DNA of 64,000 bases, from assembly GCA_002686885.1 (NCBI GenBank), contig NYYT01000012.1, positions 84,161-148,160 of the forward strand. Reading direction: 5' to 3'. This document shows, one piece after another, positions 37,378 through 62,470 of this stretch. A program made the translations under genes and the position numbers. Every line of letters begins with the position of its first letter. Position 1 is the stretch's first letter. Under the pieces are notes generated by a model. The model ran no database searches and was not told the DNA's origin. It worked only from the letters and a program-made list of their open reading frames with translations. Source of the stretch: Pedosphaera sp. (GTDB lineage: Bacteria > Verrucomicrobiota > Verrucomicrobiia > Limisphaerales > AAA164-E04).

Positions 37378-37456
37378 TTCTTGTGTTTGGATCCTAGGTA
37401 ACCACCCCAAAAACCATACCCCAGCAAGCGATTCGAATCTTCCGCCACCTTCCATC

Positions 37457-42907: not shown

Positions 42908-42969
42908 CGTAGGCGTATTATTTTTATAGGCTCAAGCCCTGTTTGCTGCGTCGACAGAATCATTCGAAT

Positions 42970-44112: not shown

Positions 44113-44117
44113 TCCAT

Positions 44118-46237: not shown

Positions 46238-46251
46238 GCTCTTGTCCATCT

Positions 46252-47619
46252 ATGAATCTTTTCAATGCCATTCTTATCGGTCTCAAGGACATTTGGTCTC
46301 ACAAATTCCGCACCCTTCTCACGATGTTCGGGATTGTGCTTGGGGTCTCCAGCCTGGTGGCCATGGCAGCAGTGATTACCGGAATGGAAAAAGGCATGAA
46401 GGAGTCGATGATTGCCATGGGTGGCTTGGATAAGATCCGTATTGACGACGAGGATGTCCCGACCTGGCAAGATCATTTAAAAAACCAGGCTCCAGGACGG
46501 CTGATCAAGGATGTGGAAGCTCTCAAGGCCAGCGCTCCCTTGATCACGACGATTTCACCCGAAATGCGTCTGGACTGGCGAGCCACGCGCGTGACCCGCC
46601 AGGGCCGATCCGCATCCACCTCTGAAATCGTGGGCGTCTGGCCGGCGGTGCTGGATATGAATCTCTACGAAGTCGAGCATGGTCGTTTCTTCTGCGACCT
46701 GGACGAAGAGTTTGCCAACAGCGTCTGTGTGATCGGGACAGGTGTGCGCGATCAGCTCTTTGGAAGTCCGGAGGAAAAAGGAACCGAAATCGTGCCCATC
46801 GGTGAAGTCCTTCAGGTCGGGGGCCAGCCCTTTACCATTGTTGGTATGTTCAAGCATTACGAAAGCGAACAAGAGCGTAAACTCAAGGAACTTGCGAAAA
46901 AGCAAGCCAAGGAGAACGAAGGGGGTGTGAAGCGCCAACGTGGCTGGAGCGGAGCCAAGAAGTGGGGCGATGCGTTCTGGAGGAAAAACAATGTGGTTTA
47001 CATGCCCTTGAATACTGCCTGGATCAAGTTCAGAGCTGCATCCAATGAAGACCAGACACCCGACCCTCGCTTGACGGATATCGACATCAAGATAGCCGAT
47101 CTGGATCTCCTGGAACCCGCTTTGCAACAGGCTCGCAACGTCATGCTGGTAACCCACAATGGCATCAACGACTTTGAATTCGATACTCAGGAAAACCAGA
47201 TCAACGACATTCGCACCCGTATTCGAAACATGCGCATCAGCCAAGGAGTGATTGCCGGTTTGAGTTTGCTGGTGGGCGGAATTGGTATCATGAACATCAT
47301 GCTTGCCAGCATCAACGAACGTATTCGCGAAATAGGCACCTGCAAGGCAGTCGGAGCGAGCAGTGAAGCCATCTTTACCCAGATCATTGTCGAAAGCATT
47401 GCGGTCGCCATGTTGGGCGCTTTAGTGGGTCTTGGATTTTCATTTCTGCTGGTCGAACTCATTGAGATCGCCTCCCCCGCACAGAATTCGCCCATCATTA
47501 CCGTTTACCCCATGGTGATTGCGGTGGGTTTCAGTGCCCTCGTAGGAGTGGTTGCTGGGCTCTTTCCGGCCTTCAAGGCAGCAGGTTTTCACCCAATTCA
47601 GGCCTTGCGCTACGAATAA
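46252..47619 (+). CDS. ABC transporter permease, MacB/FtsX type with large periplasmic domain (paralogue 2)
   Basis: Same architecture as paralogue 1 (KDIWSHKFRTLLTMFGIVLGVSSLV ... GGIGIMNIMLASINERIREIGTCKAVGA). Start placed at the ATG at 46252, 15 nt after the previous stop. Confidence 0.85.
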   Translation: MNLFNAILIGLKDIWSHKFRTLLTMFGIVLGVSSLVAMAAVITGMEKGMKESMIAMGGLDKIRIDDEDVPTWQDHLKNQAPGRLIKDVEALKASAPLITTISPEMRLDWRATRVTRQGRSASTSEIVGVWPAVLDMNLYEVEHGRFFCDLDEEFANSVCVIGTGVRDQLFGSPEEKGTEIVPIGEVLQVGGQPFTIVGMFKHYESEQERKLKELAKKQAKENEGGVKRQRGWSGAKKWGDAFWRKNNVVYMPLNTAWIKFRAASNEDQTPDPRLTDIDIKIADLDLLEPALQQARNVMLVTHNGINDFEFDTQENQINDIRTRIRNMRISQGVIAGLSLLVGGIGIMNIMLASINERIREIGTCKAVGASSEAIFTQIIVESIAVAMLGALVGLGFSFLLVELIEIASPAQNSPIITVYPMVIAVGFSALVGVVAGLFPAFKAAGFHPIQALRYE

Positions 47620-47788: not shown

Positions 47789-48019
47789 ATGGCAGACCTA
47801 GAAAATAAACAGCCTGAGAGCGTGGATGGTAAGTTTTATGTAGATGACCAGTGCATCGACTGTGATTTATGTCGCGAAACAGCACCTGAAAATTTCAAGC
47901 GCCAGGAAGATGGCGGATACTCCTACGTTTACAAACAGCCTGAGAACGACGACGAAGCTACTCAGTGCCAAGAAGCAATGGAAGGTTGTCCTGTCGAAGC
48001 CATTGGCGAGGACGGTTAA
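47789..48019 (+). CDS. small single-cluster ferredoxin
   Basis: CIDCDLC...C...CPVEAI cysteine pattern in 76 aa. Followed by a strong terminator. Confidence 0.75.
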   Translation: MADLENKQPESVDGKFYVDDQCIDCDLCRETAPENFKRQEDGGYSYVYKQPENDDEATQCQEAMEGCPVEAIGEDG

Positions 48020-48047: not shown

Positions 48048-48079
48048 AAAAGCCCGGGTCAACCACCCGGGCTTTTTTT
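48048..48079. terminator. bidirectional intrinsic terminator between the ferredoxin gene and the end of the BMC operon
   Basis: Perfect 12-bp stem AAAAGCCCGGGT / ACCCGGGCTTTT with a 5-nt loop (CAACC). It has a T-run on the plus strand and, through the A-run, on the minus strand as well. Confidence 0.85.
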
Positions 48080-48114: not shown

Positions 48115-49434
48115 TCATCCAAAGATCCGTTTGAGACGATCCTGATCATAGGCACGCCTCTGTTGAGCGGTCATGGTTTTGAAATCGGGTCGCCCATCGG
48201 ACAACATGGGCCAATCCACGGCACAGGGCGCTTCCCCTTGCCCGGATGCATCAGATACTTTGCCGGCAGGCAGTTCGGATTGCCTCTCTGCCTTCTCCGA
48301 CCCGCGAATCGGGCTCTCTCCCATCATGACACGGCTTTTCCCAGAAGAGGATTCATCATAACTCATCGCCTGCTCGGTAATGGCCAGATCTCGGTCCAGG
48401 GATCGGTGGGCCTTGATGCCTTTCTGCTGAAGAACGCCATGATAGGCATGCACCGCCTCCTTGGGTCCAATCACACCTTCGGTGATCAAGCGAAGCATTT
48501 CAATGAAGGCTAATTGATGCTCGGCTTGATTGATTTTACGCCCATAGAGTGCGACCCGAGCGCCATATTTCTGAGCATCGTGAATCAGTTTAAAGGCATC
48601 GTAGGTCGTGCCCGCACTCCCACCCAAAACGCCCACAATCATGTTGGGATCGTATTGAACCAACTCCTCCATCGCCCTGGGTCCATGATAGGGTATTTTG
48701 AGGAAAACAGGACGTCCGGCATCGGTCACACCTGCAAGACTGCGCAAAATATGATCGTTGATGAACTCACCCATTTTTTCAGGAGCGACCCCGGATGGCA
48801 CATTGGGATTGAAGACTTCAAGAAAATATCGAAATCGCTTGGCCTCTGCTTCCTCACGAAAAGCCTTGAAGGATTCCAGGGTGTGTTTATCCCGGGTCAG
48901 ATCGTTCACGAAGGTCACCGAGTAGAGGCCCAGGTTGGCCCCAGGAAACACATCCACCGAACGGTCACACTCGATCTGACCACATTGAATGTGATCGATG
49001 CTCGCTGACCGAAAAGGCTGGGCAGGCTCTGCCGTGTAGCAGCCATGTCGAATGGCCCAAACATCCGTCGCATCATTGGCCCTGGCAGCAGGCGTGATGG
49101 GGGAGGAGTCAAACAAACCCTCCTTGATGGAGAGTAGCTCATTGACGTAAGCCGACATCAAAACAATGTCGACTTGCCCCTGGTGGACGACTTCACGAAT
49201 GATATCGAGGAATTCAGGGAGATTTCGAAAACCAAACTCATCCCGCGACCATATTTCAGGGGAAAATCGTGCCGGCCGCTCTCCCTGAGCGGACAAATAA
49301 TGTCGCCCTCCTGTCGCCCGAACCCCAAAAGCCATGTCCGCATCTTTGGCGTCGGCAATGATGAAGGCTTTCGAGGCAGGATTTGCCCGAATGGCTTCAA
49401 GCTTTTGATCCAGAGATTTGATCATCGACGACAT
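48115..49434 (-). CDS. unassigned 439-aa protein, last gene of the BMC operon (possibly an aldolase-type TIM-barrel fold) with a ~90-aa low-complexity C-terminal extension
   Basis: Core of about 345 aa with AFIIADAKDADMAFG near the N-terminus and FLKIPYHG / GVLGGSAGTTYDAF later. These are reminiscent of DeoC/LacD/Cgl0159-like barrels, but this is by eye only. The tail is SSSGKSRVMMGESPIRGSEKAERQSELPAGKVSDASGQGEAP... and ends in TMTAQQRRAYDQDRLKRIFG. Confidence 0.5.
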   Translation of the reverse strand: MSSMIKSLDQKLEAIRANPASKAFIIADAKDADMAFGVRATGGRHYLSAQGERPARFSPEIWSRDEFGFRNLPEFLDIIREVVHQGQVDIVLMSAYVNELLSIKEGLFDSSPITPAARANDATDVWAIRHGCYTAEPAQPFRSASIDHIQCGQIECDRSVDVFPGANLGLYSVTFVNDLTRDKHTLESFKAFREEAEAKRFRYFLEVFNPNVPSGVAPEKMGEFINDHILRSLAGVTDAGRPVFLKIPYHGPRAMEELVQYDPNMIVGVLGGSAGTTYDAFKLIHDAQKYGARVALYGRKINQAEHQLAFIEMLRLITEGVIGPKEAVHAYHGVLQQKGIKAHRSLDRDLAITEQAMSYDESSSGKSRVMMGESPIRGSEKAERQSELPAGKVSDASGQGEAPCAVDWPMLSDGRPDFKTMTAQQRRAYDQDRLKRIFG

Positions 49435-49454
49435 GGCGAACGATGTTACTCACT

Positions 49455-50381
49455 TCACAGCTGAACCTTTGACATCGTTTCCTTGAGGGCGCGAGCCGAT
49501 TGCTGCAGTCCTGTTTGTTCTTTGGGCCACAACTTGAGTTCTACCTGCTGATGCACACCACCACGCCCCACCACCGTGGGCACGCTCAAACAAATATCCC
49601 TGATCTGATAGGTACCCTGCACCCGTGAAGAAACGGGCAGCAGGCGTCTCTGATCGAGAGCAATCGCATGAATCACGTCCCTGATGGCGATGCCCACGGC
49701 CCATCCGGCCCCACCCTTGCGCTTGATCACTTCCGCACCACTTCCTCGAGTGCGTGTGAATATCTGTCCCTGAAAGCCGGGACCACAGCCGGGATATTCG
49801 GTCAGCGGCAAACCATTCACAGAAGAGGCAGACCAGATGGGAACCATCGAATCGCCATGCTCCCCGAGCGTCAAGGCCTTGACCTGAGTCGGTGCCAGAT
49901 CAAGGGCTTCAGCGATCAGTGAGCTGAATCGAGTGGAATCAAGCATGGTTCCAAGCCCAATGACTTGTTGCCAGGGCAGCCCCAAACGCTCTCCTGCCAG
50001 ATGAGTCAGGATGTCGACAGGGTTGGAAACCACAAAAACGATGGCATCCTGACGCATGCCGGCTTTTTGAATGCTCTCGAGGATTTGAACAAACAGTGCC
50101 ACATTGCGATTGATCAAGTCCAAACGGGATTCATCGGGTTTACGACGAAGACCTGCAGTAATGAGGAAGATGTCCGAATCCGAAGCTTGTTCATAACTAC
50201 CCGCGGTGATGCGCTGATCCGCCGTAAAGGCCGAACCATGCAACAAGTCCAGTGCTTCCCCCTCGGCCATGGCCTGGTTGGCATCGATCAGTTGGATTTC
50301 TGAAACGATGCCACCACATTGCAGAGCAAAGGCTGCACAGGAACCCACTCGACCGCCACCTCCTATTATGCTGACTTTCAT
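49455..50381 (-). CDS. L-lactate/malate dehydrogenase family (L-2-hydroxyacid dehydrogenase)
   Basis: Rossmann motif MKVSIIGGGGRVG. Substrate loop ITAGLRRKPDESRLDL. Catalytic-His motif LGEHGDSMVPIWS. Confidence 0.85.
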   Translation of the reverse strand: MKVSIIGGGGRVGSCAAFALQCGGIVSEIQLIDANQAMAEGEALDLLHGSAFTADQRITAGSYEQASDSDIFLITAGLRRKPDESRLDLINRNVALFVQILESIQKAGMRQDAIVFVVSNPVDILTHLAGERLGLPWQQVIGLGTMLDSTRFSSLIAEALDLAPTQVKALTLGEHGDSMVPIWSASSVNGLPLTEYPGCGPGFQGQIFTRTRGSGAEVIKRKGGAGWAVGIAIRDVIHAIALDQRRLLPVSSRVQGTYQIRDICLSVPTVVGRGGVHQQVELKLWPKEQTGLQQSARALKETMSKVQL

Positions 50382-50414
50382 GATCTATTAAAAAAGGTTG
50401 TCAGTGTTTGCAAT

Positions 50415-51476
50415 CTACTTGTTCCCCAATTGAGACATGATCTGGTCGGTGATGGCTTGTACGGCTTGCTCAGTCGCCGGGTCCTGCGAGGCTCCCCCGC
50501 CCGAGGAAGCCGATGGTGTGGTGGCACAGGTCACTCCGGGCCGCCATTGTTCATTATCGCAGAGCTCACATTCCTTGAGCCCAAACCTCGGATCAGGGAT
50601 GCCAAGGTTTTGTTTGATATTGAGTAAGTCCTTGAGTTGCTCGGGATTCATGGTGTTGAGCGGCGTGCCGAGCTGGGAAGCTACCCAGATGGTTCGGCAA
50701 TAGGCTTCAAGAATCTCCATCTTGAAGTAGGCATCTTCCACGGTGAGGTGGCTCCATGCCACCGCTCCATGATTCCCCATCAATACGGTGTTGTGCTTGT
50801 CCACCAGATCCGCCACCAGCTGGCCCATCTCGGGCGTTCCCGGCGTGCGGTAGGGAGCAATGGGAACCTTGCCAATGAAAACCTCAATTTCAGGTATCAT
50901 GCAGGTCGGTGGTTCCACACCAGCCACCGCGTAGGCGGTTGCGTGGGGCGGGTGACAGTGAACCGTCGCCTTGGCGCGCGGTTGACGTTTCATGATTTCC
51001 AGGTGCATGAGAATTTCGCTGGTACGCTTTTTTTCTCCTGCTTTCTGCTGCCCATCCAGATCCACCAAACATAGATCTGCAGGCTTCATGAACCCCTTGG
51101 AAACCAGCGTCGGCGTGCATAAGGCCAGATCATCGGCCACTCGGATGGCGATATTGCCACCATTGCCATCCACATAGGCGCGTTGCCAAAGCCTTTGCCC
51201 GACATCGCAAATCTCCACCTTCAAGGCCTCCATTTGGGGCGTGCGGAAAAACGTATCAAGCTCCCGCTGCGAACTCTGTGCACTGATGCCGGCAGTCACG
51301 GCAGCCTCCACCGCAGCACCCGCTGCAGGGGTCAAACTGGAGGAATGGGGCTCCTGCTGGTTTCGAATCAAGTCACGGGCAGAGGGTGTCAAAATGGCAT
51401 CGGCAGTGATCGACTCAATGGAGGCTCCCTGCTTGAGTAAGGATTCAACGTCTTTGGCGCTGATTATTTTTTTCAT
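50415..51476 (-). CDS. class II (fuculose/rhamnulose-phosphate-type) aldolase with N- and C-terminal extensions; BMC signature enzyme
   Basis: Aldolase_II core (NGGNIAIR, VHCHPPHATAYA, MGNHGAVAW). It carries an extra ~75 aa at the N-terminus and ~50 aa at the C-terminus. ATGA overlap with the upstream BMC-P gene. Confidence 0.85.
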   Translation of the reverse strand: MKKIISAKDVESLLKQGASIESITADAILTPSARDLIRNQQEPHSSSLTPAAGAAVEAAVTAGISAQSSQRELDTFFRTPQMEALKVEICDVGQRLWQRAYVDGNGGNIAIRVADDLALCTPTLVSKGFMKPADLCLVDLDGQQKAGEKKRTSEILMHLEIMKRQPRAKATVHCHPPHATAYAVAGVEPPTCMIPEIEVFIGKVPIAPYRTPGTPEMGQLVADLVDKHNTVLMGNHGAVAWSHLTVEDAYFKMEILEAYCRTIWVASQLGTPLNTMNPEQLKDLLNIKQNLGIPDPRFGLKECELCDNEQWRPGVTCATTPSASSGGGASQDPATEQAVQAITDQIMSQLGNK

Positions 51477-51781
51477 GCGTCTTCTTTGGGTGTATAAAAG
51501 GTTTCATCGACCAGTGCTGCATTGATGGCATCAATGGGAATGGGAGGGTCAAAAGGTGAGGCGGCTTCTCGGCCTTCCACAAAACCCACTGTATCCCCCA
51601 CCCCTCCTCCGAGGTTGTCATAAATCACCAAAGAGGGTTCGTCAGTGATTTGATTCAAGGGTTGGTGGCCTTGTTGAAAATGTTTCCTGTTGAAGGGGCT
51701 GATCAACAGCCAGCGAGCTCCCTTGAGTTGAGGAACGCTTTGACTGAGGGTCACCCTTCCGATCACCGTTCCAAGCCTCAT
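51473..51781 (-). CDS. BMC vertex protein (BMC-P, EutN/CcmL family), paralogue 3
   Basis: MRLGTVIGRVTLSQ...LKGARWLLISP...DNLGGGVGDTV matches the EutN/CcmL pattern. Confidence 0.85.
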   Translation of the reverse strand: MRLGTVIGRVTLSQSVPQLKGARWLLISPFNRKHFQQGHQPLNQITDEPSLVIYDNLGGGVGDTVGFVEGREAASPFDPPIPIDAINAALVDETFYTPKEDA

Positions 51782-52056
51782 GCAGCAGCCTCCTTTTCAG
51801 GCTCATCAATGATGGCAATGATGATCTGTCTCACAGGGCTTTTGTCATCCATGACCGCCAGACGAGCAGCCGAACCATCCGAGGAAATGATGACCTTCTG
51901 ATGCATGCCCGCCCCCAGCGGATCAATGGCAATCACCGGGGTGCCCTCGGCAAGCCCACGGGCATCGAGGGGCTGGCAAATGAGCATCCGCCACCCTTGA
52001 AGACTCGGGTGTTTTCGGGTGGCGATCATACTGCCTTCGACACGTGCCAGTAGCAT
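51778..52056 (-). CDS. BMC vertex protein (BMC-P, EutN/CcmL family), paralogue 2
   Basis: MLLARVEGSMIATRKHPSLQGWRMLICQPLD...IDPLGAGMHQKVIISSDGSAAR. Confidence 0.9.
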   Translation of the reverse strand: MLLARVEGSMIATRKHPSLQGWRMLICQPLDARGLAEGTPVIAIDPLGAGMHQKVIISSDGSAARLAVMDDKSPVRQIIIAIIDEPEKEAAA

Positions 52057-52084
52057 GGGCTTGTTTGAATGAAGTTGGTTATTT

Positions 52085-53587
52085 TCAGTAAATCCGAAGG
52101 TTGTCCACCATGACGCACCGCCTGACGCGTGTGAAGGTCCGTGGATTGGTCACTCCTTCGCCGGTAGGCGTCGCAATGGAAAAACTCAGGTAACCTTCGC
52201 CCCCCAGGCCCAGCCCTGCCATACAGGGACCATTCTTGATGAACAAGGTCGTATCCAACGCTCGTGCCATCGCAGTCATGTGATTCACATCATGCGAATG
52301 GATGATCGATGTGTGCTTGTATTGGTGCTCTGCCTTGAGGGACTCCTCAATCCCCGCCTCGATGGAAGGCACTCTCACAATGGGAATGAAGGGCATCATT
52401 TGCTCCTCGTCGACAAATGGGTGAGAGGCATCGGTCTCCGCAAATAGCAATTCTGTGCCATCCGGCACACGCAGCCCCGCAGCCTGAGCCAGGACCGATA
52501 CGTCCTTGCCAATCAGGTCTTTATTGACGACGGCATGCGGACATCCTGCTCCCTGCCCCTCCTTGAAAGTGAAGGCAGCTTGAGTCAGCTGATCCAGTTG
52601 AGCGGCATTGAGGCGCACGGCCCCTGCCTTTTCCATCGCACCCATCAACTCATCAGCGATGTTTTCCAGAGCAAACACTTCTTTCTCGCCAATACAAAGC
52701 AAGTTGTTGTCAAAAGCAGCGCCCTGAATAATGGATTCAGCGGCTCGTTTCATACAGGCTGTGTCGTCCACCAGGACCGGTGGATTTCCAGGCCCTGCAC
52801 AGATGGCTCGCTTTCCGGTTTGCATGGCAGCCTTGACCACACCGGGCCCACCGGTCACACAAAGCAGGCGAACTGCTTCATGCGAGCACAATTCCTTGAA
52901 GGACTCCAAAGTGGGTTCTTCGATGATGCAGACTAGATTCTGAATCCCGGTTTCATGCTCGATGGCCTTGTTGAATTCCCTTACGGCCATGGCAGCGCAT
53001 CGCGATGCGGCAGGATGGGCATTGAAAACCACCGCATTACCGGCGGCGACGATATTGACGATATTACCTGCAAGAGTCGGAATGGAGTGGGTGGATGGGG
53101 TGATGGCCCCAACGACACCGAAAGGGGTGTATTCTTCGAGGGTGATGCCATGATCCCCACTACGCCCGTCGGGACGGATCCAGTCGACGCCAGGCACCAA
53201 GCCGATGATCTGGAGCTTACCGATCTTGTGATCCAGACGGCCGATCTTGGATTCTTCGAGCTCTATTTTACCCCACTCGTTGGCTCGATCCTCGCACATG
53301 GTTTTGACAATGCGCTCTACTTGCCGTCGGGCTTCAATCCCCTTTTTCTGTAGTTGTAGAAAGCCTTGTTGGGCGGCTTCACAGGCCTGGGCTGCTGTTT
53401 CAAAGACGCCGTGACGCCCCTTGGAAGAGGATGATACACCGCAAGAAGGAGGCGCGTAAGAGGGTGATGAGGCCACTACCGGCGGCGTGCTCGGTGCCGC
53501 TGGGGCCTGACTAGAGCCACCTCCCAACTTGCCGAGGACCTCTTGAATGACCTCCCGAATCAGGGTTTCGTTCATCTGCGAACTCAT
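52085..53587 (-). CDS. CoA-acylating aldehyde dehydrogenase (PduP/EutE-like) with N-terminal encapsulation peptide
   Basis: ALDH core with the catalytic Cys in NNLLCIGEKE. Start placed at MSSQMNETLIREVIQEVLGKL (ATG 53587). A P/S/A-rich linker follows the helix. Confidence 0.9.
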   Translation of the reverse strand: MSSQMNETLIREVIQEVLGKLGGGSSQAPAAPSTPPVVASSPSYAPPSCGVSSSSKGRHGVFETAAQACEAAQQGFLQLQKKGIEARRQVERIVKTMCEDRANEWGKIELEESKIGRLDHKIGKLQIIGLVPGVDWIRPDGRSGDHGITLEEYTPFGVVGAITPSTHSIPTLAGNIVNIVAAGNAVVFNAHPAASRCAAMAVREFNKAIEHETGIQNLVCIIEEPTLESFKELCSHEAVRLLCVTGGPGVVKAAMQTGKRAICAGPGNPPVLVDDTACMKRAAESIIQGAAFDNNLLCIGEKEVFALENIADELMGAMEKAGAVRLNAAQLDQLTQAAFTFKEGQGAGCPHAVVNKDLIGKDVSVLAQAAGLRVPDGTELLFAETDASHPFVDEEQMMPFIPIVRVPSIEAGIEESLKAEHQYKHTSIIHSHDVNHMTAMARALDTTLFIKNGPCMAGLGLGGEGYLSFSIATPTGEGVTNPRTFTRVRRCVMVDNLRIY

Positions 53588-53636
53588 AACAGCCGAATTA
53601 GTTGAGGATGAGCGGAGTGGAACCACCCCATTGAAT

Positions 53637-53648
53637 TAGATTTTGAAA
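53637..53648. promoter_or_regulatory. internal copy of the TAGATTTTGAAA motif in the BMC-P1/aldehyde-dehydrogenase intergenic gap
   Basis: The 12-mer is identical to 57051..57062 in the divergent control region. Confidence 0.4.
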
Positions 53649-53671
53649 ACATGGCATGGACAGAAAAGCTC

Positions 53672-53986
53672 TCACTCGCTCTGTGCATTGAAAATTTTGG
53701 TTCCTTTGACATCCACGGTATCCACAATGCCAATGACCACGGCATCGACAGGAGCCTGCTTCAAGTTGGGTGCCAGCCGCGCACTGCTGCCCTGACAGAA
53801 CAACACCATTTCACCCACCCCAGCTCCAACGCTGTCCACTGCCACAATGGTGTTTTTCCCTCCACGGAATTGTGTGGGATCCTGATCATCGACCAGTTGG
53901 GGACGCAACAAAAGCAACTTGCGGCCCGACATGGAGGGGTCCTTTTTGGTGGCCACCACCGCACCCTCGACTTTGGCTAGGAACAT
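53672..53986 (-). CDS. BMC vertex protein (BMC-P, EutN/CcmL family), paralogue 1
   Basis: MFLAKVEGAVVATKKDPSMSGRKLLLLRP...VDSVGAGVGEMVLFCQGSSAR. Confidence 0.9.
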   Translation of the reverse strand: MFLAKVEGAVVATKKDPSMSGRKLLLLRPQLVDDQDPTQFRGGKNTIVAVDSVGAGVGEMVLFCQGSSARLAPNLKQAPVDAVVIGIVDTVDVKGTKIFNAQSE

Positions 53987-54016
53987 ACCGTTAACGCTGT
54001 TGGCAAAGCTGATGCA

Positions 54017-54295
54017 TCATCCGGGGAGCACGGCTCCGATATCAGAGTGCGGTCGAGCAATGACATGCACGCTGACCAATTCTCCGCCGACTGATTTGAT
54101 GGCCTCGGCACCGGCGTCAGTTGCGGCCTTGACGGCAGCCACATCCCCCACGACGACCGCCGAAACGAGGGCATTGCCAACTTGTTTCATGGGACCTGCA
54201 AGGGTCACATTCGCTGCCTTGAGCATCGCATCGGTTCCTTCGACCAAGGCGATCAGACCACGCGTTTCAATCATTCCAATTGCTTGATTTGACAT
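54017..54295 (-). CDS. BMC shell hexamer protein (BMC-H, single Pfam00936-type domain)
   Basis: [32 protein letters not shown]...[13 protein letters not shown]. Confidence 0.95.
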   Translation of the reverse strand: MSNQAIGMIETRGLIALVEGTDAMLKAANVTLAGPMKQVGNALVSAVVVGDVAAVKAATDAGAEAIKSVGGELVSVHVIARPHSDIGAVLPG

Positions 54296-54313
54296 AGTAT
54301 TTCTTGTGTGTTG

Positions 54314-55501
54314 TTAAGATTTGTTTTCCAAAAATCGTTTAACCTCCCGAGCCACCACCAACTCCTCATTGGTGGGAATCACCAAGACTTTGACGGGGCT
54401 GTTTGCGTCGCTGATGAAACCCTCCTGCCCCAGGCACCCTTCGTTGAGCGATTCATCGAGCTGGATCCCCAACGGTTCCAGCTCACGACAGATGGCCTTC
54501 CTGAGCTGAGGACGGTTTTCTCCGATACCTGCAGTAAAGACCAATGCATCCAAGCCTCCCAACTCGAGGTAATAAGCCCCCATCCAACGACGCACTTCGG
54601 CGACGAGAAAATCCAGCGCAAGCTGCGCATCAGCATGACCCTCTTCTGCCCTAGACTGCACATCGCGCAGGTCGTTGAAGCCCCCAGAAAGGCCACTGAG
54701 GCCGCCTGAGGAACAAAGGTCGTGGAGCACTTGCTCCATGGTCCAACCCTGTTTCTGGATCATGTATGGAATGGCCATGGCATCGAGGTCACCCACCCGA
54801 TTGTTGTGAGGCAGGCCCGATTGGGGACTCAGCCCCATGCTATTGCCGATGGCCACGCCATCTCGTATGCCCGTCACGGAGGAGCTACCACCCAGGTGAG
54901 CGGATACCACCCGGAGAGACGGCCCTTTTACAAGAGATTGCCCCTGATTCACGTAGAGCTGTCGTGCCCTCTCAGCGACATCTTCCCTGCCAAGGAGTTC
55001 CGAAGAACGCTCAGCTATGAATTTGTGACTGGCCCCGTGAAAGCCCCACCGGCGCACCCCCGCCTCAAACCAACTTTGAGGCACTCCATAGCGTTTGGAA
55101 GTTTCAGGAATCCATTGGTAGAAGGCGGTCTCGAACAACCCCACCAGAGGCGTGTACGGCATGCGCTCGGCGAAAAGCCGAATCCCCGTCAGGTAGGGAG
55201 GATTATGGGCCGGGGCAATCTGGTTCCCTGCTTCCATATCCTTGAGAACCTCTTCAGAAAGAGCGACGCACCCTGTGACCGACTGAGCCAGGACCGTCTT
55301 AAAGCCAATGGCAGAAAGTTCTGATTCCTCCTCAATCGCGCCTGCCTCCTTGAGCTGTTCCAGACATTCCTGAATGGCCGAAGGATAGTCCTTGACCCGC
55401 TCAAGCCCACCACGATGCAATAAGGCAACTTCTTCTGAAGTGAACGCAAAAAGACGCCACTTCAAAGAAGTCGAACCTAAATTGGCAACGAGGATTTTCA
55501 C
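54314..55501 (-). CDS. ackA: acetate/propionate (acyl) kinase
   Basis: KILVANLGSTSLKW N-terminal motif and the typical ASKHA fold motifs. I favour the GTG at 55501, which gives M-KILVANLGS. The ORF-track ATG at 55534 adds 11 atypical residues. Confidence 0.88.
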   Translation of the reverse strand: MKILVANLGSTSLKWRLFAFTSEEVALLHRGGLERVKDYPSAIQECLEQLKEAGAIEEESELSAIGFKTVLAQSVTGCVALSEEVLKDMEAGNQIAPAHNPPYLTGIRLFAERMPYTPLVGLFETAFYQWIPETSKRYGVPQSWFEAGVRRWGFHGASHKFIAERSSELLGREDVAERARQLYVNQGQSLVKGPSLRVVSAHLGGSSSVTGIRDGVAIGNSMGLSPQSGLPHNNRVGDLDAMAIPYMIQKQGWTMEQVLHDLCSSGGLSGLSGGFNDLRDVQSRAEEGHADAQLALDFLVAEVRRWMGAYYLELGGLDALVFTAGIGENRPQLRKAICRELEPLGIQLDESLNEGCLGQEGFISDANSPVKVLVIPTNEELVVAREVKRFLENKS

Positions 55502-55566
55502 GGATAAAAGTCTACCGCTGCGCCACCGATCCAAGGAATACCGTGGATCGTGCGATGCAGAATGGA

Positions 55567-55851
55567 TCAGGATTGTTTGAGCCAGGAGCCCAGACCGCTG
55601 AGGTCTTCATGCGGGCGTGGAATCACCTGCACGCTGATCACTTCCCCCACTTGGGAAGCGGCTGCAGCACCTGCGTCAGTGGCTGCCTTCACAGCAGCCA
55701 CATCCCCTCGGAAGAAGCCAGTAACATACCCACTGCCAATCTTTTCCCAACCCACCATAGTGACATTGGCGGCCTTGAGTGCTGCATCGCAGGCTTCGAG
55801 CATGGCGCAGAGACCACGCGTTTCGATCATGCCTATTGCTTGATTTGCCAT
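55567..55851 (-). CDS. BMC shell hexamer protein (BMC-H)
   Basis: [34 protein letters not shown]...[13 protein letters not shown]. Confidence 0.95.
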
Positions 55852-55889
55852 AATTATTTTGTGTTTGGTTCTTTTAGAAATCGAGAGAT

Positions 55890-56180
55890 CTATCCCTTTT
55901 TGGCTTTGCCATCAGGCACGAATGCCTTCAGCAAATCTTCGTGTGGTCTTGCCAGCAGGTGTGAACTGATCAGTTCACCCACCCGCGCTGCGGCATTGGA
56001 GCCCGCATCTACAGCAGCCTTGACACTGCCGACGTCACCCTGCGCCAGCACGGTGATCATCCCTCCACCAATGGGGATGGTTTTGACAAGGCGCACATTG
56101 GCGGCTTTGACCATGGCGTCGCTGGCTTCTACCGCGCCGACATAGCCTTTGGTTTCAATCATACCTAATGCTTCACTCAT
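55890..56180 (-). CDS. BMC shell hexamer protein (BMC-H, PduA/J-like)
   Basis: [32 protein letters not shown]...[13 protein letters not shown], with a basic C-terminal tail. Confidence 0.95.
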
Positions 56181-56231
56181 AGTATTGTTTTTTGGGGTTT
56201 TACGATTATTGGAAAAAAGGTTCTAAAATAG

Positions 56232-56912
56232 TTATCGGATCAGTTCGCACGACGTGTTGGGAAGCAGATTGCAGGCATTGCCTTCGTCCGTGTCGATGTG
56301 CACTTCCAATTTAAAGCTGGGATCCACTCGCACCAACATCTGTTCGAAAGTCATGCCACAGGCTCCTCCCACCCGCATGCTCATGAAATCGCCCTGCGAG
56401 ACTTGGTAGAAACGGGCATCATCGGGATGCATGTGAACGTGCCTAAGTGCACGAATCACCCCTTGATCCATTTCAAAAAAGCCATTCGGCCCCATCAACA
56501 TGGCACCTGGTGTACCTACAATGTCGCCGGAGCTCTTGAGTGGAATATCAAAACCCAGAGCGACAGCATCGGTGTAGGCCAGCTCGACTTGATTGAGTGT
56601 GCGGCAAGGCCCCAAGATGCGAAGGTTGGAAATGACACGACTACGAGGCCCCACCAGAGTCACTGTTTCCTTCGCAGCAAATTGACCCTCCTGGTAAAGC
56701 CATTTGTGGACTGAAAGCTGGTGTCCTGGACCAAACAAGGCCTCGACCGCCTCTTGAGTCAAATGACAATGCCGCGCACTAACGTTGACCACCAAGGGGT
56801 TGGGAGCCTGCGCAGCCTGAGGCACTGGCTGCCCCATCCGCTGGTAGACAGCCTGCCGGACCCAGTGCTCAACAACCGCACGATGAGGGAGACTTGATTG
56901 GCTCGACATCAT
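56232..56912 (-). CDS. pduL: phosphate acyltransferase, PduL type (PTAC)
   Basis: Two PduL repeats (NVSARHCHL and IRALRHVHMHP). Start placed at MMSSQSSLPHRAVVEHWVRQAVYQRM (ATG 56912). The ORF-track start at 57002 lies in AT-rich promoter-like sequence. Confidence 0.88.
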   Translation of the reverse strand: MMSSQSSLPHRAVVEHWVRQAVYQRMGQPVPQAAQAPNPLVVNVSARHCHLTQEAVEALFGPGHQLSVHKWLYQEGQFAAKETVTLVGPRSRVISNLRILGPCRTLNQVELAYTDAVALGFDIPLKSSGDIVGTPGAMLMGPNGFFEMDQGVIRALRHVHMHPDDARFYQVSQGDFMSMRVGGACGMTFEQMLVRVDPSFKLEVHIDTDEGNACNLLPNTSCELIR

Positions 56913-57120
56913 TTTCTTATGCCTATCAAAATCTACCACGTCCATGATATTGTCAAGAATTATCTTCCAATTTCTACCAAAATCTTTCAAATAATATTTC
57001 AAACATTCATCTTAAGATAAATTTGTGTGAATAAGTTTGAGCCTGATGATAGATTTTGAAAGTTTTTTTAAATGACGACCGTGAACTTTCGTGGCATCTT
57101 TTCCCAAACTCTTCCTTTTC
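56913..57120. promoter_or_regulatory. AT-rich divergent control region between pduL (BMC operon) and the DeoR regulator, with a 10-bp inverted repeat
   Basis: TCAAAATCTA at 56927..56936 and its exact complement TAGATTTTGA at 57051..57060. An 8/10 direct copy CCAAAATCTT lies at 56978..56987. Confidence 0.5.
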
Positions 57121-57879
57121 ATGCAAGCTGAAGAACGCCAGAAACGCATCACCGATCATCTGCAAAAGGTTGAATTTTCAACCTTGGATGAACTGTCCGA
57201 GTTGGTCGATGCTTCCATTTCGACCGTTCGAAGGGATCTAACCCTCCTAGAAACCACAGGTCTGGTCAAAAGGACCCATGGAGGAGCTCGACTCCTGCAA
57301 CCTCAATCCCAGGAATTTATCTTTACTGAGAGGGAAACGCGGGAAAACGACGAGAAGGACCTTATCGGAAAGGCCTGCGCCCGCTTGATCCCCCCGAACC
57401 AAAGCGTGATCATCGATGCAGGAACAACCGCCTTCCATGCAGCCAAGCACTTGGGGGGTGGAGCTCCTCAAATCATCACCAATTCATTACCCGTGGCCAA
57501 CCACTACGCCTCCAACGGCAATGTAGAGGTCATTTTGTCTGGAGGTGTGATCTATCCAAGATTGGGGGTCATGGTCGGCCCCATTGCCAACGAAACTTTT
57601 TCACGTATGCATGCAGATTACGCCATCATGGGCTCTGGGGGGATCACCGAAGAAGGGATCACCAACTCGCACAATCTGCTCATTGATATTCAGAAGGAAA
57701 TGCTTCGAGCAGCTCAAAAAGTCATTTTTTGCCTGGATCACACCAAATTTGGGAGACGCTCGGTTTCATTCCTCTGTGATCTCGGCCAAGTCGATTCCAT
57801 CATCACAGACACCAAGGCCCCCCCTGCCCTGCTGGAGCACTTCTCGTCCAAGGGTATTGAGATCGTCCTTGCTCACTGA
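57121..57879 (+). CDS. DeoR-family transcriptional regulator
   Basis: N-terminal wHTH (RQKRITDHLQKVEFSTLDELSELVDASISTVRRDLTLLE) plus a DeoR C-terminal sensor domain. Divergent from the BMC operon. Confidence 0.9.
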   Translation: MQAEERQKRITDHLQKVEFSTLDELSELVDASISTVRRDLTLLETTGLVKRTHGGARLLQPQSQEFIFTERETRENDEKDLIGKACARLIPPNQSVIIDAGTTAFHAAKHLGGGAPQIITNSLPVANHYASNGNVEVILSGGVIYPRLGVMVGPIANETFSRMHADYAIMGSGGITEEGITNSHNLLIDIQKEMLRAAQKVIFCLDHTKFGRRSVSFLCDLGQVDSIITDTKAPPALLEHFSSKGIEIVLAH

Positions 57880-57907: not shown

Positions 57908-59383
57908 TCAATCCCAATAGGTGCCTTCCTGCAGGATTTGTTGCCGATAGGCACGAAGATTCTCCACCAGCTTCTCAGCTCTCTCCGGGTATTCCGCAGC
58001 ACGATTGAAGCGTTCTCCGAGGTCCTCTTCGACCTGAAAAAGAAGCGGGGCTGCCTCGGATACCGTAAATCCATAATCATCCCCCAGCTGGGATCCAATG
58101 CGGATATGGCATTTCCAGGGTCCTTCTCTCAAGGCAGAGGCTTGATTGTCATGGTAGGAATAAAGGAATCGAAACGGGGATACCTCTCCGGAAAAGTGCG
58201 CCGGAGCCAGCCAGGGAAGGAGGTCCCTGCCATCCACGGAGCGATCGTCCGGCAGAGGCTGACCCGCCAAATGCATGAGTGTGGGGAACACATCCAGAGT
58301 CGAAGCGGGCTCAAGAATGCGCGTTTGCCCTTTAATGACTCCTGGCCAATAGAAAATGCCCGGTACCCGATGCCCGCCTTCCCAGGTCGAACCCTTCCCA
58401 TCGCGAAACGGGTAGGCATTGCCTACATGCATCCGAGCCTCGCCATATTTGGGGTGTGAGGCTGTCTCCTTGAAGCGCAGCCAGGGGCCGTTGTCCGACG
58501 AAAAGACGATGAGCGTATGGTTGGTCAGTTCCAGCTTGGAGAGTCGTTTCAGAATGCGCTCCATCGAATGATCGATTTCAGCCATGACATCCCCCAGCAG
58601 TCCACGACGAGACCGTCCAACGAAAGCATCGGAAGCGTAGAGTCCCAGATGAGGTTGATTATGAGCCAGATAAACAAAAAAAGGTTGAGATGCGTTTTGC
58701 TCGATAAAGGACAAAGCCGCATCCGTGTAGCGTTGGGTCAGGGAAGCCGAAATACCGGGGTGCGATGGAAGATCACGCCCCAGCTCAACATAGCCCCTCA
58801 CTGGTTGGTCGCCGTTGACATCACTCTGCAAAAGCTTGGCATTATCATAGTCATGGGACACGTTGGTTCCGAGCCACTGATCAAAGCCATGCGCCAGCGG
58901 GAGCGCCTCGGGGGTCCTTTGGTTTTTCTCATTCGGGTTCCCCAAATGCCATTTACCAAAGAGAGCAGTGGCATACCCACTGGCCTTGAACCCCTCAGCC
59001 AAGGTCCTTTCCTTGGGGTGCATGTGGCGTGCAGCACCCGGGCCGATCACCCATGATCCAAGACCGGACCGACCCGGCACTCTACCCGTCAGAAGAGAGT
59101 AACGAGAGGCCGAACATGCCGGCGAAGACGTGTAAAATTGAGTGAATTGGGCTCCCTCCCATGCGAGACGACTGATGGTCGGTGTCTCGATGGTAGGGTT
59201 TCCATGATGGGCAAAGTCTCCGTAGCCCGCATCATCGAGAAAGACGAGAATGACGTTGGGACGATCCAAGGCAGGACGAGTGGCAGCCTCGGCGGCCTTG
59301 GAGGCGGAAAGCACTCCTGTGGCGACACTCAGCAATAATGCGAGCCAGCATGGATACTTTGAAAACTCATTGAAGTAATTCAT
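57908..59383 (-). CDS. secreted formylglycine-dependent sulfatase (arylsulfatase A family)
   Basis: PNVILVFLDDAGYGDF and the active-site segment SSPACSASRYSLLTGR. Signal peptide from the ATG at 59383. Overlaps the upstream TolC-like gene by 17 nt. Confidence 0.88.
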   Translation of the reverse strand: MNYFNEFSKYPCWLALLLSVATGVLSASKAAEAATRPALDRPNVILVFLDDAGYGDFAHHGNPTIETPTISRLAWEGAQFTQFYTSSPACSASRYSLLTGRVPGRSGLGSWVIGPGAARHMHPKERTLAEGFKASGYATALFGKWHLGNPNEKNQRTPEALPLAHGFDQWLGTNVSHDYDNAKLLQSDVNGDQPVRGYVELGRDLPSHPGISASLTQRYTDAALSFIEQNASQPFFVYLAHNQPHLGLYASDAFVGRSRRGLLGDVMAEIDHSMERILKRLSKLELTNHTLIVFSSDNGPWLRFKETASHPKYGEARMHVGNAYPFRDGKGSTWEGGHRVPGIFYWPGVIKGQTRILEPASTLDVFPTLMHLAGQPLPDDRSVDGRDLLPWLAPAHFSGEVSPFRFLYSYHDNQASALREGPWKCHIRIGSQLGDDYGFTVSEAAPLLFQVEEDLGERFNRAAEYPERAEKLVENLRAYRQQILQEGTYWD

Positions 59384-61151
59384 AATCCTTTTCCTCCCAC
59401 TGGCCACCTTCCTTGATAAAGAGAATGCCCATATCTCGCCAGAAGCCCAGACGCGCGATGGTATGACTGATAAGGGCACTGGTCAGCTGATTCTGGGAGT
59501 TGATCAAGTCATTCTGAGCATCGACCAAATCGAGAGCAAGTCCCAGACCCAGTTCTCGCTTGAGGATTTCTTCATCTCGTCGGTTTTGGCTGAGCTCAAC
59601 CCGCACTTGACTGATTTCAAACTCCCTTTTGCGTTGTTCTAGATTACGCCAGCCGTCCTGAATATCGAGTTTTACTTGGTCGAGAAAAAGCTCCTGCTGG
59701 CGACGCGCGCGATCGAAGGCAATGAGAGCTGAGCGGTAGCTGTTTCGTTCTGCCTTGCGATTGATGGGCAAATCGACTCCCAGGGCGGCCGTCCAAGAGC
59801 GCTGGCGAAAATCGGGGAATTGAAAACCCTCACCAGGGCGACTGGAGAGCTGACCAGAAAGCCGCAGATCGAGATCTGCTTGAAGCCCATCGGCCGCAAT
59901 TCGAATACGGCGCTCCGAATCGATCAAACGATCGCGGGTATTGTCCAAGTCCAAACGCATCTTCAACGCGACCTCCACCGCCTGATCTACTGAAAGTTCG
60001 GGATGATGAATCTCAAGATCTTTAAGTTCCGTTTCATCCAAAATCATCAAAGTATCCATCGAGAGTCCCAGGTCCATTTTGAACCTATCCCGCGATAATT
60101 GATAATTGCGAATCGCGCTGATCCATCCCTGTTCGGTAGAAAGCAATGATTCTTTGAGGCGATTGAGTTCGGAGAGAGGTGTCTCACCTTCCGCGGCTCG
60201 AGCCTGTTCCCGTTCCACACTTACCTTGAAACTTTCATATCCCTGAAAAGCATTTCGAACTCGATCCCGATTTTGAAGCACTTGATAGTAGGAGGCGACG
60301 ATCTCGACAGAAAACTCTTTGCGAAAACGGGTGAAATCTCGGATGGCATACAATAGATTACGCTCCGCCTGAGTGAGCCTCTCGATGGCAATCCGATAGC
60401 CTGCCCCTCTCAGCAAAGGTTGTGTCAAGGTGGCACCAAGAGCCGAAGATGTTGCCAAGCCCTCATCGTTTGAAACGAAGCGTACGAAATCGGTAGTGAA
60501 GTCAGCTGCAATACGCCCCCCCGTTCGCAACAACCAGTTGAAACCCACTCCTGCATTACTCTGGATCGTCTTTTCCTTAACCAAACCATCGACACCACTT
60601 TGGGCTTCTCCTGCAAGACGCTGTCGTTCCTGATAAGCCACATCACCACTACTCCCAAAAATCGGAGTGTATTGAAATCGTGCCAAGGACAGATCCAAAG
60701 CCTGCAAATAAAGATCTTCTTTTTGAGTCAAATATCTTCGGTTATAGGCAGTCGCTAGCTCAAGAGCGGCTTCAAGAGAGACGACACGAGCCCCTACTTC
60801 GCTCTGCCCAGTCTTGCCTAGGAATGCTTCCAAATTTTCGGAGACTGGCATGGATGCGAGATCCGAAGGATCCATTTGCTGAAGCTCAAAACTAGGCTCC
60901 GTGTTCGGTATGAGGGTCGACTTTTCGGCAATTAAGGAGGCCGCCTCTCGATTCGCACTTTCTTCGTAGTGTTGGGTCGAGCAACCCGTCCATGAGGAAA
61001 CCAAGAGGAGGCACCAGAGGCAGGTCAACATGCTTCCAAAACCTTGTCCAAGACCCACCCCCTTACACTGCACGGGCGCCATGAACTGCATCCAGTAAGC
61101 GCTGGCTAACCGCATGTTCCAACCTTTGATGAAAGCATCTTGCTGCATCAT
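59367..61151 (-). CDS. outer-membrane efflux protein (TolC/OEP family)
   Basis: Two OEP-type repeats with long helical segments. The start is uncertain: 61151, or the internal ATG at 61031, which gives MLTCLWCLLLVSSWTGCS. Confidence 0.75.
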   Translation of the reverse strand: MMQQDAFIKGWNMRLASAYWMQFMAPVQCKGVGLGQGFGSMLTCLWCLLLVSSWTGCSTQHYEESANREAASLIAEKSTLIPNTEPSFELQQMDPSDLASMPVSENLEAFLGKTGQSEVGARVVSLEAALELATAYNRRYLTQKEDLYLQALDLSLARFQYTPIFGSSGDVAYQERQRLAGEAQSGVDGLVKEKTIQSNAGVGFNWLLRTGGRIAADFTTDFVRFVSNDEGLATSSALGATLTQPLLRGAGYRIAIERLTQAERNLLYAIRDFTRFRKEFSVEIVASYYQVLQNRDRVRNAFQGYESFKVSVEREQARAAEGETPLSELNRLKESLLSTEQGWISAIRNYQLSRDRFKMDLGLSMDTLMILDETELKDLEIHHPELSVDQAVEVALKMRLDLDNTRDRLIDSERRIRIAADGLQADLDLRLSGQLSSRPGEGFQFPDFRQRSWTAALGVDLPINRKAERNSYRSALIAFDRARRQQELFLDQVKLDIQDGWRNLEQRKREFEISQVRVELSQNRRDEEILKRELGLGLALDLVDAQNDLINSQNQLTSALISHTIARLGFWRDMGILFIKEGGQWEEKDYELLQ

Positions 61152-61156
61152 TCAAA

Positions 61157-62464: not shown

Positions 62465-62470
62465 GACACC

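Follow-up and report, generated by a model that had tools for sequence, protein, structure and literature searches.

This study concerns a bacterial microcompartment (BMC) operon on the minus strand of a 64-kb stretch of DNA from Pedosphaera sp. (NYYT01000012.1), referred to below as the window; all coordinates are given in window numbering. Combining a six-frame listing of open reading frames (ORFs) with Pfam gathering thresholds and NCBIfam typing, we identified twelve consecutive minus-strand genes from 56912 to 48115, all with the domains previously claimed for them above Pfam gathering thresholds, except for a last ORF of 439 amino acids (aa) that belongs to no family. From the gene for the phosphotransacylase PduL to the 439-aa gene, the intergenic distances are 51, 38, 32, 18, 30, 84, 28, -4, -4, 33 and 20 nt. 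These values exactly match an earlier reading made from the DNA letters (hereafter the sequence-only reading), which had described twelve co-directional genes in this order, with gaps of at most 84 nt or 4-nt overlaps and a divergent DeoR regulator; gene order and regulator were likewise borne out by the ORF listing and Pfam. The genes are:

57091-57879, plus strand: DeoR-family regulator, PvmA-like; PF08220 (HTH_DeoR) and PF00455 (DeoRC); alternative ATG start at 57121 possible
56232-56912, minus strand: PduL phosphotransacylase (PvmB); PF06130, 232 bits; NCBIfam PRK15070, 237 bits (cutoff 209)
55890-56180, minus strand: BMC-H protein 1; PF00936, 89 bits; 49-54% identity to the other two BMC-H proteins
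55567-55851, minus strand: BMC-H protein 2; PF00936, 100 bits
54314-55534, minus strand: acetate/propionate-family acyl kinase (PvmG); PF00871, 284 bits; TIGR00016, 283 bits; the true start probably lies downstream of the listed TTG
54017-54295, minus strand: BMC-H protein 3; PF00936, 75 bits
53672-53986, minus strand: BMC-P protein 1, PvmH-like; PF03319, 100 bits
52085-53587, minus strand: coenzyme A (CoA)-acylating aldehyde dehydrogenase (AldDH, PvmJ); PF00171; PRK15398, 593 bits (cutoff 403)
51778-52056, minus strand: BMC-P protein 2, PvmK-like; PF03319, 88 bits
51473-51781, minus strand: BMC-P protein 3, PvmM-like; PF03319, 57 bits
50415-51476, minus strand: class II aldolase (PvmN); PF00596 at residues 88-262, 151 bits
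49455-50381, minus strand: Ldh/Mdh-family dehydrogenase (PvmO); PF00056 and PF02866
48115-49434, minus strand: 439-aa protein; no Pfam family; coordinates confirmed by translation

This region is very probably a complete canonical metabolosome operon of the PVM type from an uncultured marine member of the Verrucomicrobiota, and there is no argument against the PVM assignment itself. The PVM type, found in Planctomycetes and Verrucomicrobia only, is defined by a class II aldolase, a DeoR regulator, an acetate kinase, an Ldh/Mdh-family protein as alcohol dehydrogenase surrogate, and a shell of BMC-H proteins with a BMC-P triplet. Every defining component is present in the reference order, in line with the match to the aldolase-type microcompartment of these phyla that the sequence-only reading had proposed. 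Three ORFs score 75-100 bits against PF00936 (gathering cutoff 24.5) and three others 57-100 bits against PF03319, the latter sharing 25-37% mutual identity. Pfam and NCBIfam agree on the core enzymes, namely AldDH, PduL, the acetate-family kinase and the Ldh/Mdh-family dehydrogenase; the NCBIfam match of AldDH is to the EutE/PduP-type family, and public gene calls give this protein 496-500 aa. All five hidden Markov models (HMMs) that had been suggested as a check (PF00936, PF03319, PF06130, PF00596 and PF00171) pass their gathering thresholds. Among the ORFs scanned, the class II aldolase stands alone as aldehyde-generating signature enzyme, as the sequence-only reading held and as the PVM definition has it, with the caveat that the 439-aa gene may encode a second, cryptic aldolase. 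The scan, which took in ORFs of at least 200 aa but not several overlapping or opposite-strand ones of that size, nor any shorter ORF outside the locus, revealed no diol dehydratase, ethanolamine ammonia-lyase or glycyl-radical enzyme; the earlier claim that these enzymes are missing holds within this scope. The exact window proteins have been deposited from metagenome-assembled genomes (MAGs) of uncultured marine Verrucomicrobiota bearing Limisphaerales/Pedosphaera-type names.

For comparison we used two sets of loci: 80 from species-representative genomes, retrieved with the 439-aa protein, and 38 from metagenomes, anchored independently on the class II aldolase and each extending at least 2.6 kb downstream. 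PVM genes lie directly upstream of the 439-aa gene in the same order in 58 of the 80 genome loci, and the order recurs in the aldolase-anchored metagenome loci (approximately 38), giving more than 90 loci across both sets. The comparison with catalogued loci, which had also been suggested, returned the order PvmB, D, E, G, H, J, K, M, N, O. In the accessible tables of the catalogue, PvmB is the phosphotransacylase, PvmD and PvmE are BMC-H proteins, PvmG is the kinase, PvmJ the AldDH, PvmN the aldolase and PvmO the Ldh, with PvmH, PvmK and PvmM as BMC-P proteins and PvmL listed between the last two.

The locus itself is nothing new: it belongs to an already characterised PVM system that has been catalogued and published. 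The PVM metabolosome of Planctopirus (Planctomyces) limnophila, the subject of work by Erbilgin, McDonald and Kerfeld in 2014, is said to process fucose and rhamnose via lactaldehyde. It shares with the window operon PduL, the acyl kinase, AldDH, the class II aldolase, the Ldh/Mdh-family protein, DeoR, the BMC-P triplet, the lack of BMC-T and the order PvmB-D-E-G-H-J-K-M-N-O (cluster 4.1 in Axen 2014; PVM in Sutter 2021). The Sutter 2021 catalogue holds 285 PVM loci, lists BMC-H proteins and a BMC-P triplet, but no BMC-T, for their shell, describes two BMC-H proteins and presents PVM as the first characterised locus with a BMC-P triplet. Three BMC-H and three BMC-P proteins have been reported from marine Verrucomicrobiota (Orellana 2021), so that the shell composition, earlier regarded as an open point, was already in the literature. 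The Lentimonas, Ca. Fucivorax and Ca. Mariakkermansia MAGs of that study have the same shell complement and an AraD-like aldolase; conversion of fucose and rhamnose to lactaldehyde has been proposed for them and the proteins were found in bloom metaproteomes, whereas the lineage described here is Limisphaerales/Pedosphaera-like, judging from protein names.

The label "PVM-like", which the sequence-only reading had attached to the operon, is wrong and should be dropped, since catalogues reserve it for another type that is mainly Firmicute. Like the window operon, PVM-like and GRM5 loci, most of them from Firmicutes, have a class II aldolase (PF00596) and in many cases a DeoR regulator, but gene order, shell complement and host are different, and in GRM5 there is a glycyl-radical diol dehydratase in addition. 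Nothing of this is seen here, where the PVM order, three BMC-H with three BMC-P proteins and a Verrucomicrobiota host were found.

Three features set the Verrucomicrobiota form apart from the Planctopirus type. It has a third BMC-H gene after the kinase, which is present in the Verrucomicrobiota loci that reach upstream of the first BMC-P and absent from the Planctomycetota loci L074, L076 and L078 (a third BMC-H copy does occur in Planctomycetota locus L077). The DeoR gene is divergent here and in all Verrucomicrobiota loci, whereas it is co-directional in Planctomycetota L074, L077 and L078. Finally, there is no separate PvmL gene; instead, an approximately 40-aa motif resembling eut_hyp (TIGR02536) and the EutQ N-terminus is fused to the N-terminus of the aldolase.

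What our analysis adds concerns the last gene of the operon, whose unannotated 439-aa product can, going by its predicted structure, be assigned to the class I aldolase fold. Two extra tail genes had been singled out in the sequence-only reading; one of them, the Ldh/Mdh-family gene, is the known PvmO, and the 439-aa gene is the truly open item. It is a core, near-universal member of PVM operons, being the last operon gene in 36 of the 38 aldolase-anchored metagenome loci (27 times after PvmO and nine times directly after the aldolase). PvmO is present in 28 of these 38 loci; in the genome set, 25 of 59 loci have it between the aldolase and the 439-aa gene, and the distance from the aldolase to the 439-aa gene narrows to 6-43 nt in some cases. 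Planctomycetota loci also carry the gene, at 53-56% identity. Databases contain over 8000 relatives of this protein; identity for the Verrucomicrobiota-type matches listed is 66-81% (one 98% cluster aside), and every named copy is called "hypothetical". In the catalogue tables, as far as accessible, the conserved gene after PvmO has neither a name nor an HMM. A literature survey on this gene and on bacterial ketohexokinase-aldolase pairs returned nothing relevant; Erbilgin 2014 and Sichert 2020, which may show the gene, lay outside its coverage. PDB sequence searches with the 439-aa protein and with a profile of its close homologues also yielded nothing useful.

The first lead to the fold was a weak NCBIfam match to TIGR01949 (ADH synthase, E 0.003). 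An exhaustive profile search produced 1318 cluster representatives, many of them proteins of 327-348 aa that stop at the end of the catalytic domain, and the resulting diverse-family profile reaches Escherichia coli LsrF (E 2e-5; hhalign probability 78%). A first AlphaFold run, based on an alignment of sequences at least 69% identical, gave a confidence score (pLDDT) of 52 and Foldseek matches that pointed in the right direction at template modelling (TM) scores below 0.3. The diverse alignment fixed the model: AlphaFold2 then predicted an eight-stranded beta/alpha barrel with a pLDDT of 85.6 and a pTM of 0.86. All of the top 50 PDB matches listed by Foldseek are ADH synthase, archaeal fructose-bisphosphate (FBP) aldolase, LacD or LsrF (probability 1.0, E 7e-9 to 4e-7), among them Methanocaldococcus jannaschii ADH synthase, Thermoproteus FBP aldolase and a streptococcal tagatose-bisphosphate aldolase. 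Target-normalised TM scores reach 0.70-0.78 with ADH synthase, FBP aldolase and LsrF but 0.53-0.57 with the tagatose-bisphosphate aldolases (LacD). In this model the protein consists of a TIM barrel (residues 1 to ~358), a disordered linker (~359-405) and a conserved C-terminal helix, and the barrel looks like a member of the DeoC/LacD/FbaB/LsrF branch of the class I aldolase superfamily. Two features within the gene are referred to below:

48697-48699, minus strand: codon of the invariant Lys246 (from the translation)
48118-48219, minus strand: conserved C-terminal helix of the 439-aa protein

Class I aldolases carry their Schiff-base lysine on strand beta-6. Lys246 of the 439-aa protein, within the motif FLK, lies on the predicted sixth strand; it occurs without exception in the 81 PVM-type sequences and in every kinase-linked homologue. 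Putative phosphate-binding motifs were also found: VGVLGGSAGT and ALYGRKI align to IAGGKK and DMGRNIFQ of LsrF on strands 7 and 8, respectively, and G271, G272, G298 and R299 show little or no variation.

Isomerase - PfkB kinase - class I aldolase trios are well known, for instance LacAB-LacC-LacD for tagatose-6-phosphate and YihS-YihV-YihT for sulfoquinovose. Similar arrangements are seen among the relatives of the 439-aa protein: a D-lyxose/mannose isomerase, a PfkB kinase, a tail-less homologue and an AraC gene follow one another in locus L083; tail-less homologues lie beside PfkB kinases in L084 and L085; and barrel and kinase are naturally fused in protein P0126. Standalone copies that do bear the tail follow a ketohexokinase-family gene in L015 and L031, or a DeoR gene and a class III aminotransferase in L046 and L070. 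The kinase and isomerase context of these relatives supports an aldolase role. NCBIfam types the partner kinases as generic members of the ribokinase/PfkB superfamily, so they offer no clue to the substrate, and the likeness to LacD and YihT is detectable by structure only, not by sequence. The gene for the fusion protein P0126 (727 aa; L082 4165-6348) shares its operon with those for an FAA-hydrolase, a class III aminotransferase (as in L046 and L070), a PIG-L deacetylase and a 308-aa protein of unknown function.

The tail of the PVM-linked form consists of a variable, disordered linker of approximately 45 residues followed by the conserved helix PDFxxMTxxQRxAYDxxRLxRxFG (residues 423-438, pLDDT ~80), with W408, G414, P416, F418, M421, R426, R433, L434 and G439 invariant. 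A short terminal helix joined by a linker that is poorly conserved in length and sequence is the layout of an encapsulation peptide. The tail is missing from the kinase-linked homologues (327-348 aa). It is more conserved in sequence and more polar than typical encapsulation peptides. Paralogues P0170, P0204 and P0256 keep the tail (PDFxxMTxxxKLxYNQxxRDRIFG) and have lost both Lys246 and an ANDxTD motif. Their genes (L086 10001-11221; L087; L088-L090) lie just upstream of, and overlap, a gene for an FHA-GAF sigma-54 activator, with a divergent gene for an unknown 150-aa protein on the other side; these paralogues may form a pseudo-enzyme sensor module. Since the tail is kept beside a sigma-54 activator, away from shell genes, it is probably a protein-binding module, and its use as an encapsulation signal is possible. 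The notion of a microcompartment-specific encapsulation peptide is weakened by the same paralogues, and a comparison of hydrophobic moments was not discriminating.

Taken together, these data make it somewhat probable that the 439-aa protein is a ketose-phosphate aldolase. That it is also encapsulated and supplies lactaldehyde as a second source seems unlikely, if by no means far-fetched, and the specific proposal of a second signature enzyme, a class I ketose-1-phosphate aldolase recruited through its conserved C-terminal peptide, we put forward as a rather unlikely one. Three observations weigh against the aldolase reading of the 439-aa protein. Pfam gives no match for 23 diverse members of the 439-aa family even at E<=1, and PF01791 is not recognised; HMMER and hhalign place Lys246 one residue before the Schiff-base Lys203 of LsrF with low column confidence, so that the equivalence of the two lysines is putative at the residue level; the tail-bearing, lysine-less paralogues outside microcompartment loci weaken the tail as an encapsulation signal. 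As regards the operon as a whole, a point on the contrary side is that upstream pathway genes (isomerase, kinase, transporter and fucosidases) are not among the scanned ORFs of the window.

The 439-aa protein might instead be a cytosolic class I aldolase for FBP or fructose-1-phosphate that is co-expressed so as to channel the dihydroxyacetone phosphate (DHAP) set free by the microcompartment into gluconeogenesis and is neither cargo nor signature enzyme. We regard this as doubtful and yet a substantial possibility: archaeal-type class I FBP aldolase and LacD are among the closest structural matches, the partners elsewhere are generic PfkB/ketohexokinase-type kinases as in glycolytic kinase-aldolase pairs, the very high conservation across Verrucomicrobiota, at 70-81% identity, is typical of central metabolism, and the C-terminal tail occurs outside microcompartment contexts too. 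It is harder to reconcile with the tight coupling to the 3' end of the PVM operon (36 of 38 loci, with gaps down to 6-43 nt), with a linker and conserved terminal helix that kinase-linked relatives lack, and with the retention of the tail by standalone copies. A largely non-catalytic role, as a scaffold or regulatory partner whose C-terminal peptide binds a shell protein or a regulator, appears improbable. The three lysine-less paralogues beside the sigma-54 activator would fit it, and Dwyer 2024 describes catalytically dead enzyme paralogues with encapsulation peptides in other microcompartments, but the putative active-site residues Lys246, Gly271-Gly272, Gly298-Arg299 and D28/K30/D31 are invariant over 81 PVM-linked sequences, which argues for retained catalysis in the PVM-linked form. 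Very improbable, finally, is an LsrF-like reaction in which a phosphorylated diketone and CoA give DHAP and acyl-CoA, tying the protein to the metabolosome's CoA chemistry. In its favour, the sequence profile reaches LsrF and no other protein of solved structure, LsrF also ranks among the top structural matches, and CoA is cycled in the compartment; however, ADH synthase, FBP aldolase and LacD match the model equally well or better, the associated kinases are PfkB kinases, with no LsrG-like isomerase or LsrK-like (FGGY) kinase, and no such substrate is known in 6-deoxyhexose catabolism.

Class I DHAP aldolases form and cleave the 3S configuration and FucA/RhaD-type class II enzymes the 3R configuration. 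A second, class I enzyme would on this ground extend the organelle to lactaldehyde from other 6-deoxyhexoses and, if the proposal of a second signature enzyme is true, ketose-1-phosphates from, for example, D-fucose, D-quinovose, D-rhamnose and 6-deoxytalose would be handled. More generally, should the 439-aa protein be active on a ketose phosphate, current PVM pathway diagrams would be incomplete and the substrate range or carbon routing would need revision. There is a parallel in the SPU metabolosomes, in which a PF01791-type class I aldolase fold, the DeoC-family deoxyribose-phosphate aldolase (DERA), is linked to a microcompartment together with an RpiB-like protein (Dwyer 2024). This aldolase-isomerase pair is echoed by the PvmL protein of Planctomycetota, which is weakly RpiB/LacAB-like. 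The 439-aa protein differs from SPU DERA in having no PF01791 match, in being structurally nearer the ADH synthase/FBP aldolase/LacD/LsrF branch, in carrying its extension at the C-terminus rather than the N-terminus, and in coexisting with a class II aldolase signature enzyme. In Dwyer 2024, a DeoC-family aldolase is attributed among microcompartments to SPU loci only; a cryptic class I aldolase relative in PVM loci, if real, would contradict or at least qualify that statement and, together with the RpiB-like PvmL, would hint at common ancestry of the PVM and SPU enzyme cores.

Three enzymes of the operon carry predicted targeting peptides at their termini, and the aldolase has an additional N-terminal motif:

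~56835-56885, minus strand: N-terminal extension helix of PduL; peptide conserved in 38 loci
53525-53587, minus strand: N-terminal encapsulation-peptide-like helix of AldDH, MSSQMNETLIREVIQEVLGKL (from the translation); conserved in 47 loci
51354-51473, minus strand: EutQ/eut_hyp-like motif of the aldolase, residues 2-41; TIGR02536, E 2e-4; EutQ N-terminus, E 0.017
50418-50483, minus strand: C-terminal encapsulation-peptide-like helix of the aldolase (from the translation); aldolase ends conserved in 57 loci

AldDH starts with MSSQMNETLIREVIQEVLGKL followed by a Pro/Ser/Ala-rich linker, and the aldolase ends with ATEQAVQAITDQIMSQLGNK preceded by a Gly/Ser linker. In AldDH and the aldolase the extension comprises a short, helix-forming and amphipathic-looking peptide plus a low-complexity linker; the ends of all three enzymes are conserved across 38-57 loci, and the positions match those published for encapsulation peptides on such enzymes. 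The acyl kinase and the Ldh have no terminal extensions of this kind. The N-terminal motif of the aldolase, KIISAKDVESLL...AILTPSARDLI, is found in Planctomycetota in the separate PvmL gene of approximately 240 aa between the second and third BMC-P genes (L074 6903-7655; L077 7556-7678; L078 7253-7366). PvmL itself combines an N-terminal, encapsulation-peptide-type helix with a domain that weakly resembles RpiB/LacAB (PF02502, E 2.5e-4). Verrucomicrobiota loci lost PvmL and fused its motif to the aldolase.

The general model from the PVM literature, applied by analogy to this operon, would work as follows. L-fuculose-1-phosphate or L-rhamnulose-1-phosphate, made elsewhere in the cell, would enter a shell of three BMC-H hexamers and three distinct BMC-P pentamers, inside which the class II aldolase would split it into DHAP and L-lactaldehyde. 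The toxic lactaldehyde would be retained in the lumen and converted by the CoA-acylating AldDH to lactyl-CoA, from which PduL would form lactyl-phosphate with regeneration of CoA, and the acyl kinase would then yield lactate and ATP. PvmO would, as proposed, regenerate NAD+ by turning some of the lactaldehyde into 1,2-propanediol. AldDH and PduL at their N-termini, and the aldolase at its C-terminus, bear short helices of the encapsulation type, and the divergent DeoR repressor probably acts at an inverted motif in the 180-nt intergenic promoter region.

PvmO scores just under both the lactate dehydrogenase (L-LDH) and the malate dehydrogenase (MDH) cutoffs of NCBIfam. The window protein (49455-50381, minus strand) contains the motif GLRRKPDESR, with an Arg directly before Lys-Pro, and the motif is matched in 24 of 26 sequences, namely the window protein and 25 orthologues (GLRRKPDESR in 22, GSRRKPDETR in one and GLRRKPEESR in one). 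We take this position to be the Q102R specificity switch, presumably Gln in lactate dehydrogenases and Arg in malate dehydrogenases; an Arg here is odd for the proposed lactaldehyde reductase.

The native substrate had been listed as open in the sequence-only reading, but for relatives fucose and rhamnose from sulfated algal polysaccharides have been published. The link of fucoidan, fucose and rhamnose to these loci in marine Verrucomicrobiota and Planctomycetota has proteomic and transcriptomic support, and microcompartments were observed by electron microscopy in rhamnose-grown Limisphaera. It is quite improbable that the operon handles a different aldehyde-generating sugar phosphate in this host and that its class II aldolase merely resembles FucA and RhaD: the locus is orthologous and syntenic to loci of Planctopirus, Lentimonas, Limisphaera and marine MAGs for which fucose/rhamnose use has been shown or inferred. 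Such a different substrate would accord with the top NCBIfam match of the aldolase, 3-oxo-tetronate 4-phosphate decarboxylase (all matches lie far below equivalog cutoffs), with the promiscuity of class II aldolases described in the literature, and with the scanned ORFs of the window, among which there is no fucosidase, fucose isomerase, fuculokinase or other fuc or rha gene. The PVM organelle takes part in breaking down sulfated fucans from algae, which are recalcitrant, and thereby in the turnover of carbon in the ocean. The neighbouring sulfatase, FG-GAP/BNR and PhoD genes had been taken as a hint of sulfated fucans; as a fucan-utilisation island they were rejected, because only 9 of 160 related loci have a sulfatase homologue within 10 kb and the scanned ORFs hold no fucosidase or fuc/rha genes.

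Possible control signals were found at both ends of the operon:

56978-56991, plus strand: operator/promoter-like motif, copy 1, CAAAATCTTTCAAA, in the divergent intergenic region
57055-57068, minus strand: operator/promoter-like motif, copy 2, inverted; forms inverted repeat I3 with 56979-56991 (92% complementary)
48048-48079, both strands: shared hairpin terminator; perfect 12-bp stem, 5-nt loop

The 180-nt region between the DeoR and PduL genes thus holds an inverted pair of CAAAATCTTTCAAA-type motifs. Searching for CAAAATCTT[GT]CAAA with at most two mismatches, we found the motif in 48 of 61 divergent DeoR-PduL intergenic regions, against approximately 0.8 in controls, with a total of 89 matches compared with 1.3 in size-matched control windows; the two copies in this region are the only matches in the 64-kb window. 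Judged by its recurrence, the inverted motif is a good candidate for the DeoR operator, or it may be a conserved promoter element; it provides a concrete handle on induction of the operon.

At the other end, the hairpin AAAAGCCCGGGT-caacc-ACCCGGGCTTTT, followed by TTT, lies 35 nt past the stop codon of the 439-aa gene and separates the operon from a convergent gene. Its folding energies are -29.7 kcal/mol on the plus strand and -30.8 on the minus strand (z -6.2 and -5.4 relative to shuffles). The perfect stem and strong folding uphold much of the earlier description of a perfect bidirectional terminator; with only four U after the stem on the operon strand, it is somewhat weaker as a terminator of the operon than of the convergent gene, for which it is a textbook case. 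A simple scan for sigma-70 promoters and terminators returned chance-level matches and missed this hairpin, and an Rfam scan of the window gave no match. The convergent gene (47789-48019, plus strand) encodes a 76-aa 4Fe-4S ferredoxin-like protein and shares the hairpin with the operon; it was seen only in near-identical, same-species loci and thus probably has no connection with the microcompartment.

The remaining neighbours are housekeeping genes, genes generic to the superphylum known as PVC (Planctomycetes, Verrucomicrobia and Chlamydiae), and efflux systems. Large ORFs without a Pfam match at E<=1e-5 occupy 1452-5258 (minus strand, 1268 aa), 36310-38449 (plus strand, 355 and 374 aa) and 61865-63730 (plus strand, 621 aa). 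PVC-typical gene pairs are located at 23799-28183 (minus strand) and 38619-42790 (plus strand); such pairs combine DUF1552 with a multi-domain DUF1592/1588/1587/1595/1585 protein, or DUF1549/DUF1553 with DUF1501. The DUF1552 pair is adjoined by a gene for a 1045-aa FG-GAP/BNR protein (20749-23886). Efflux systems of the MacB/FtsX type flank the operon on both sides: one at 42943-47619 (plus strand), with HlyD, an ABC ATPase and two MacB-like permeases, and a second on the opposite flank at 59367-62464 (minus strand), with an outer-membrane factor and a MacB-like permease.

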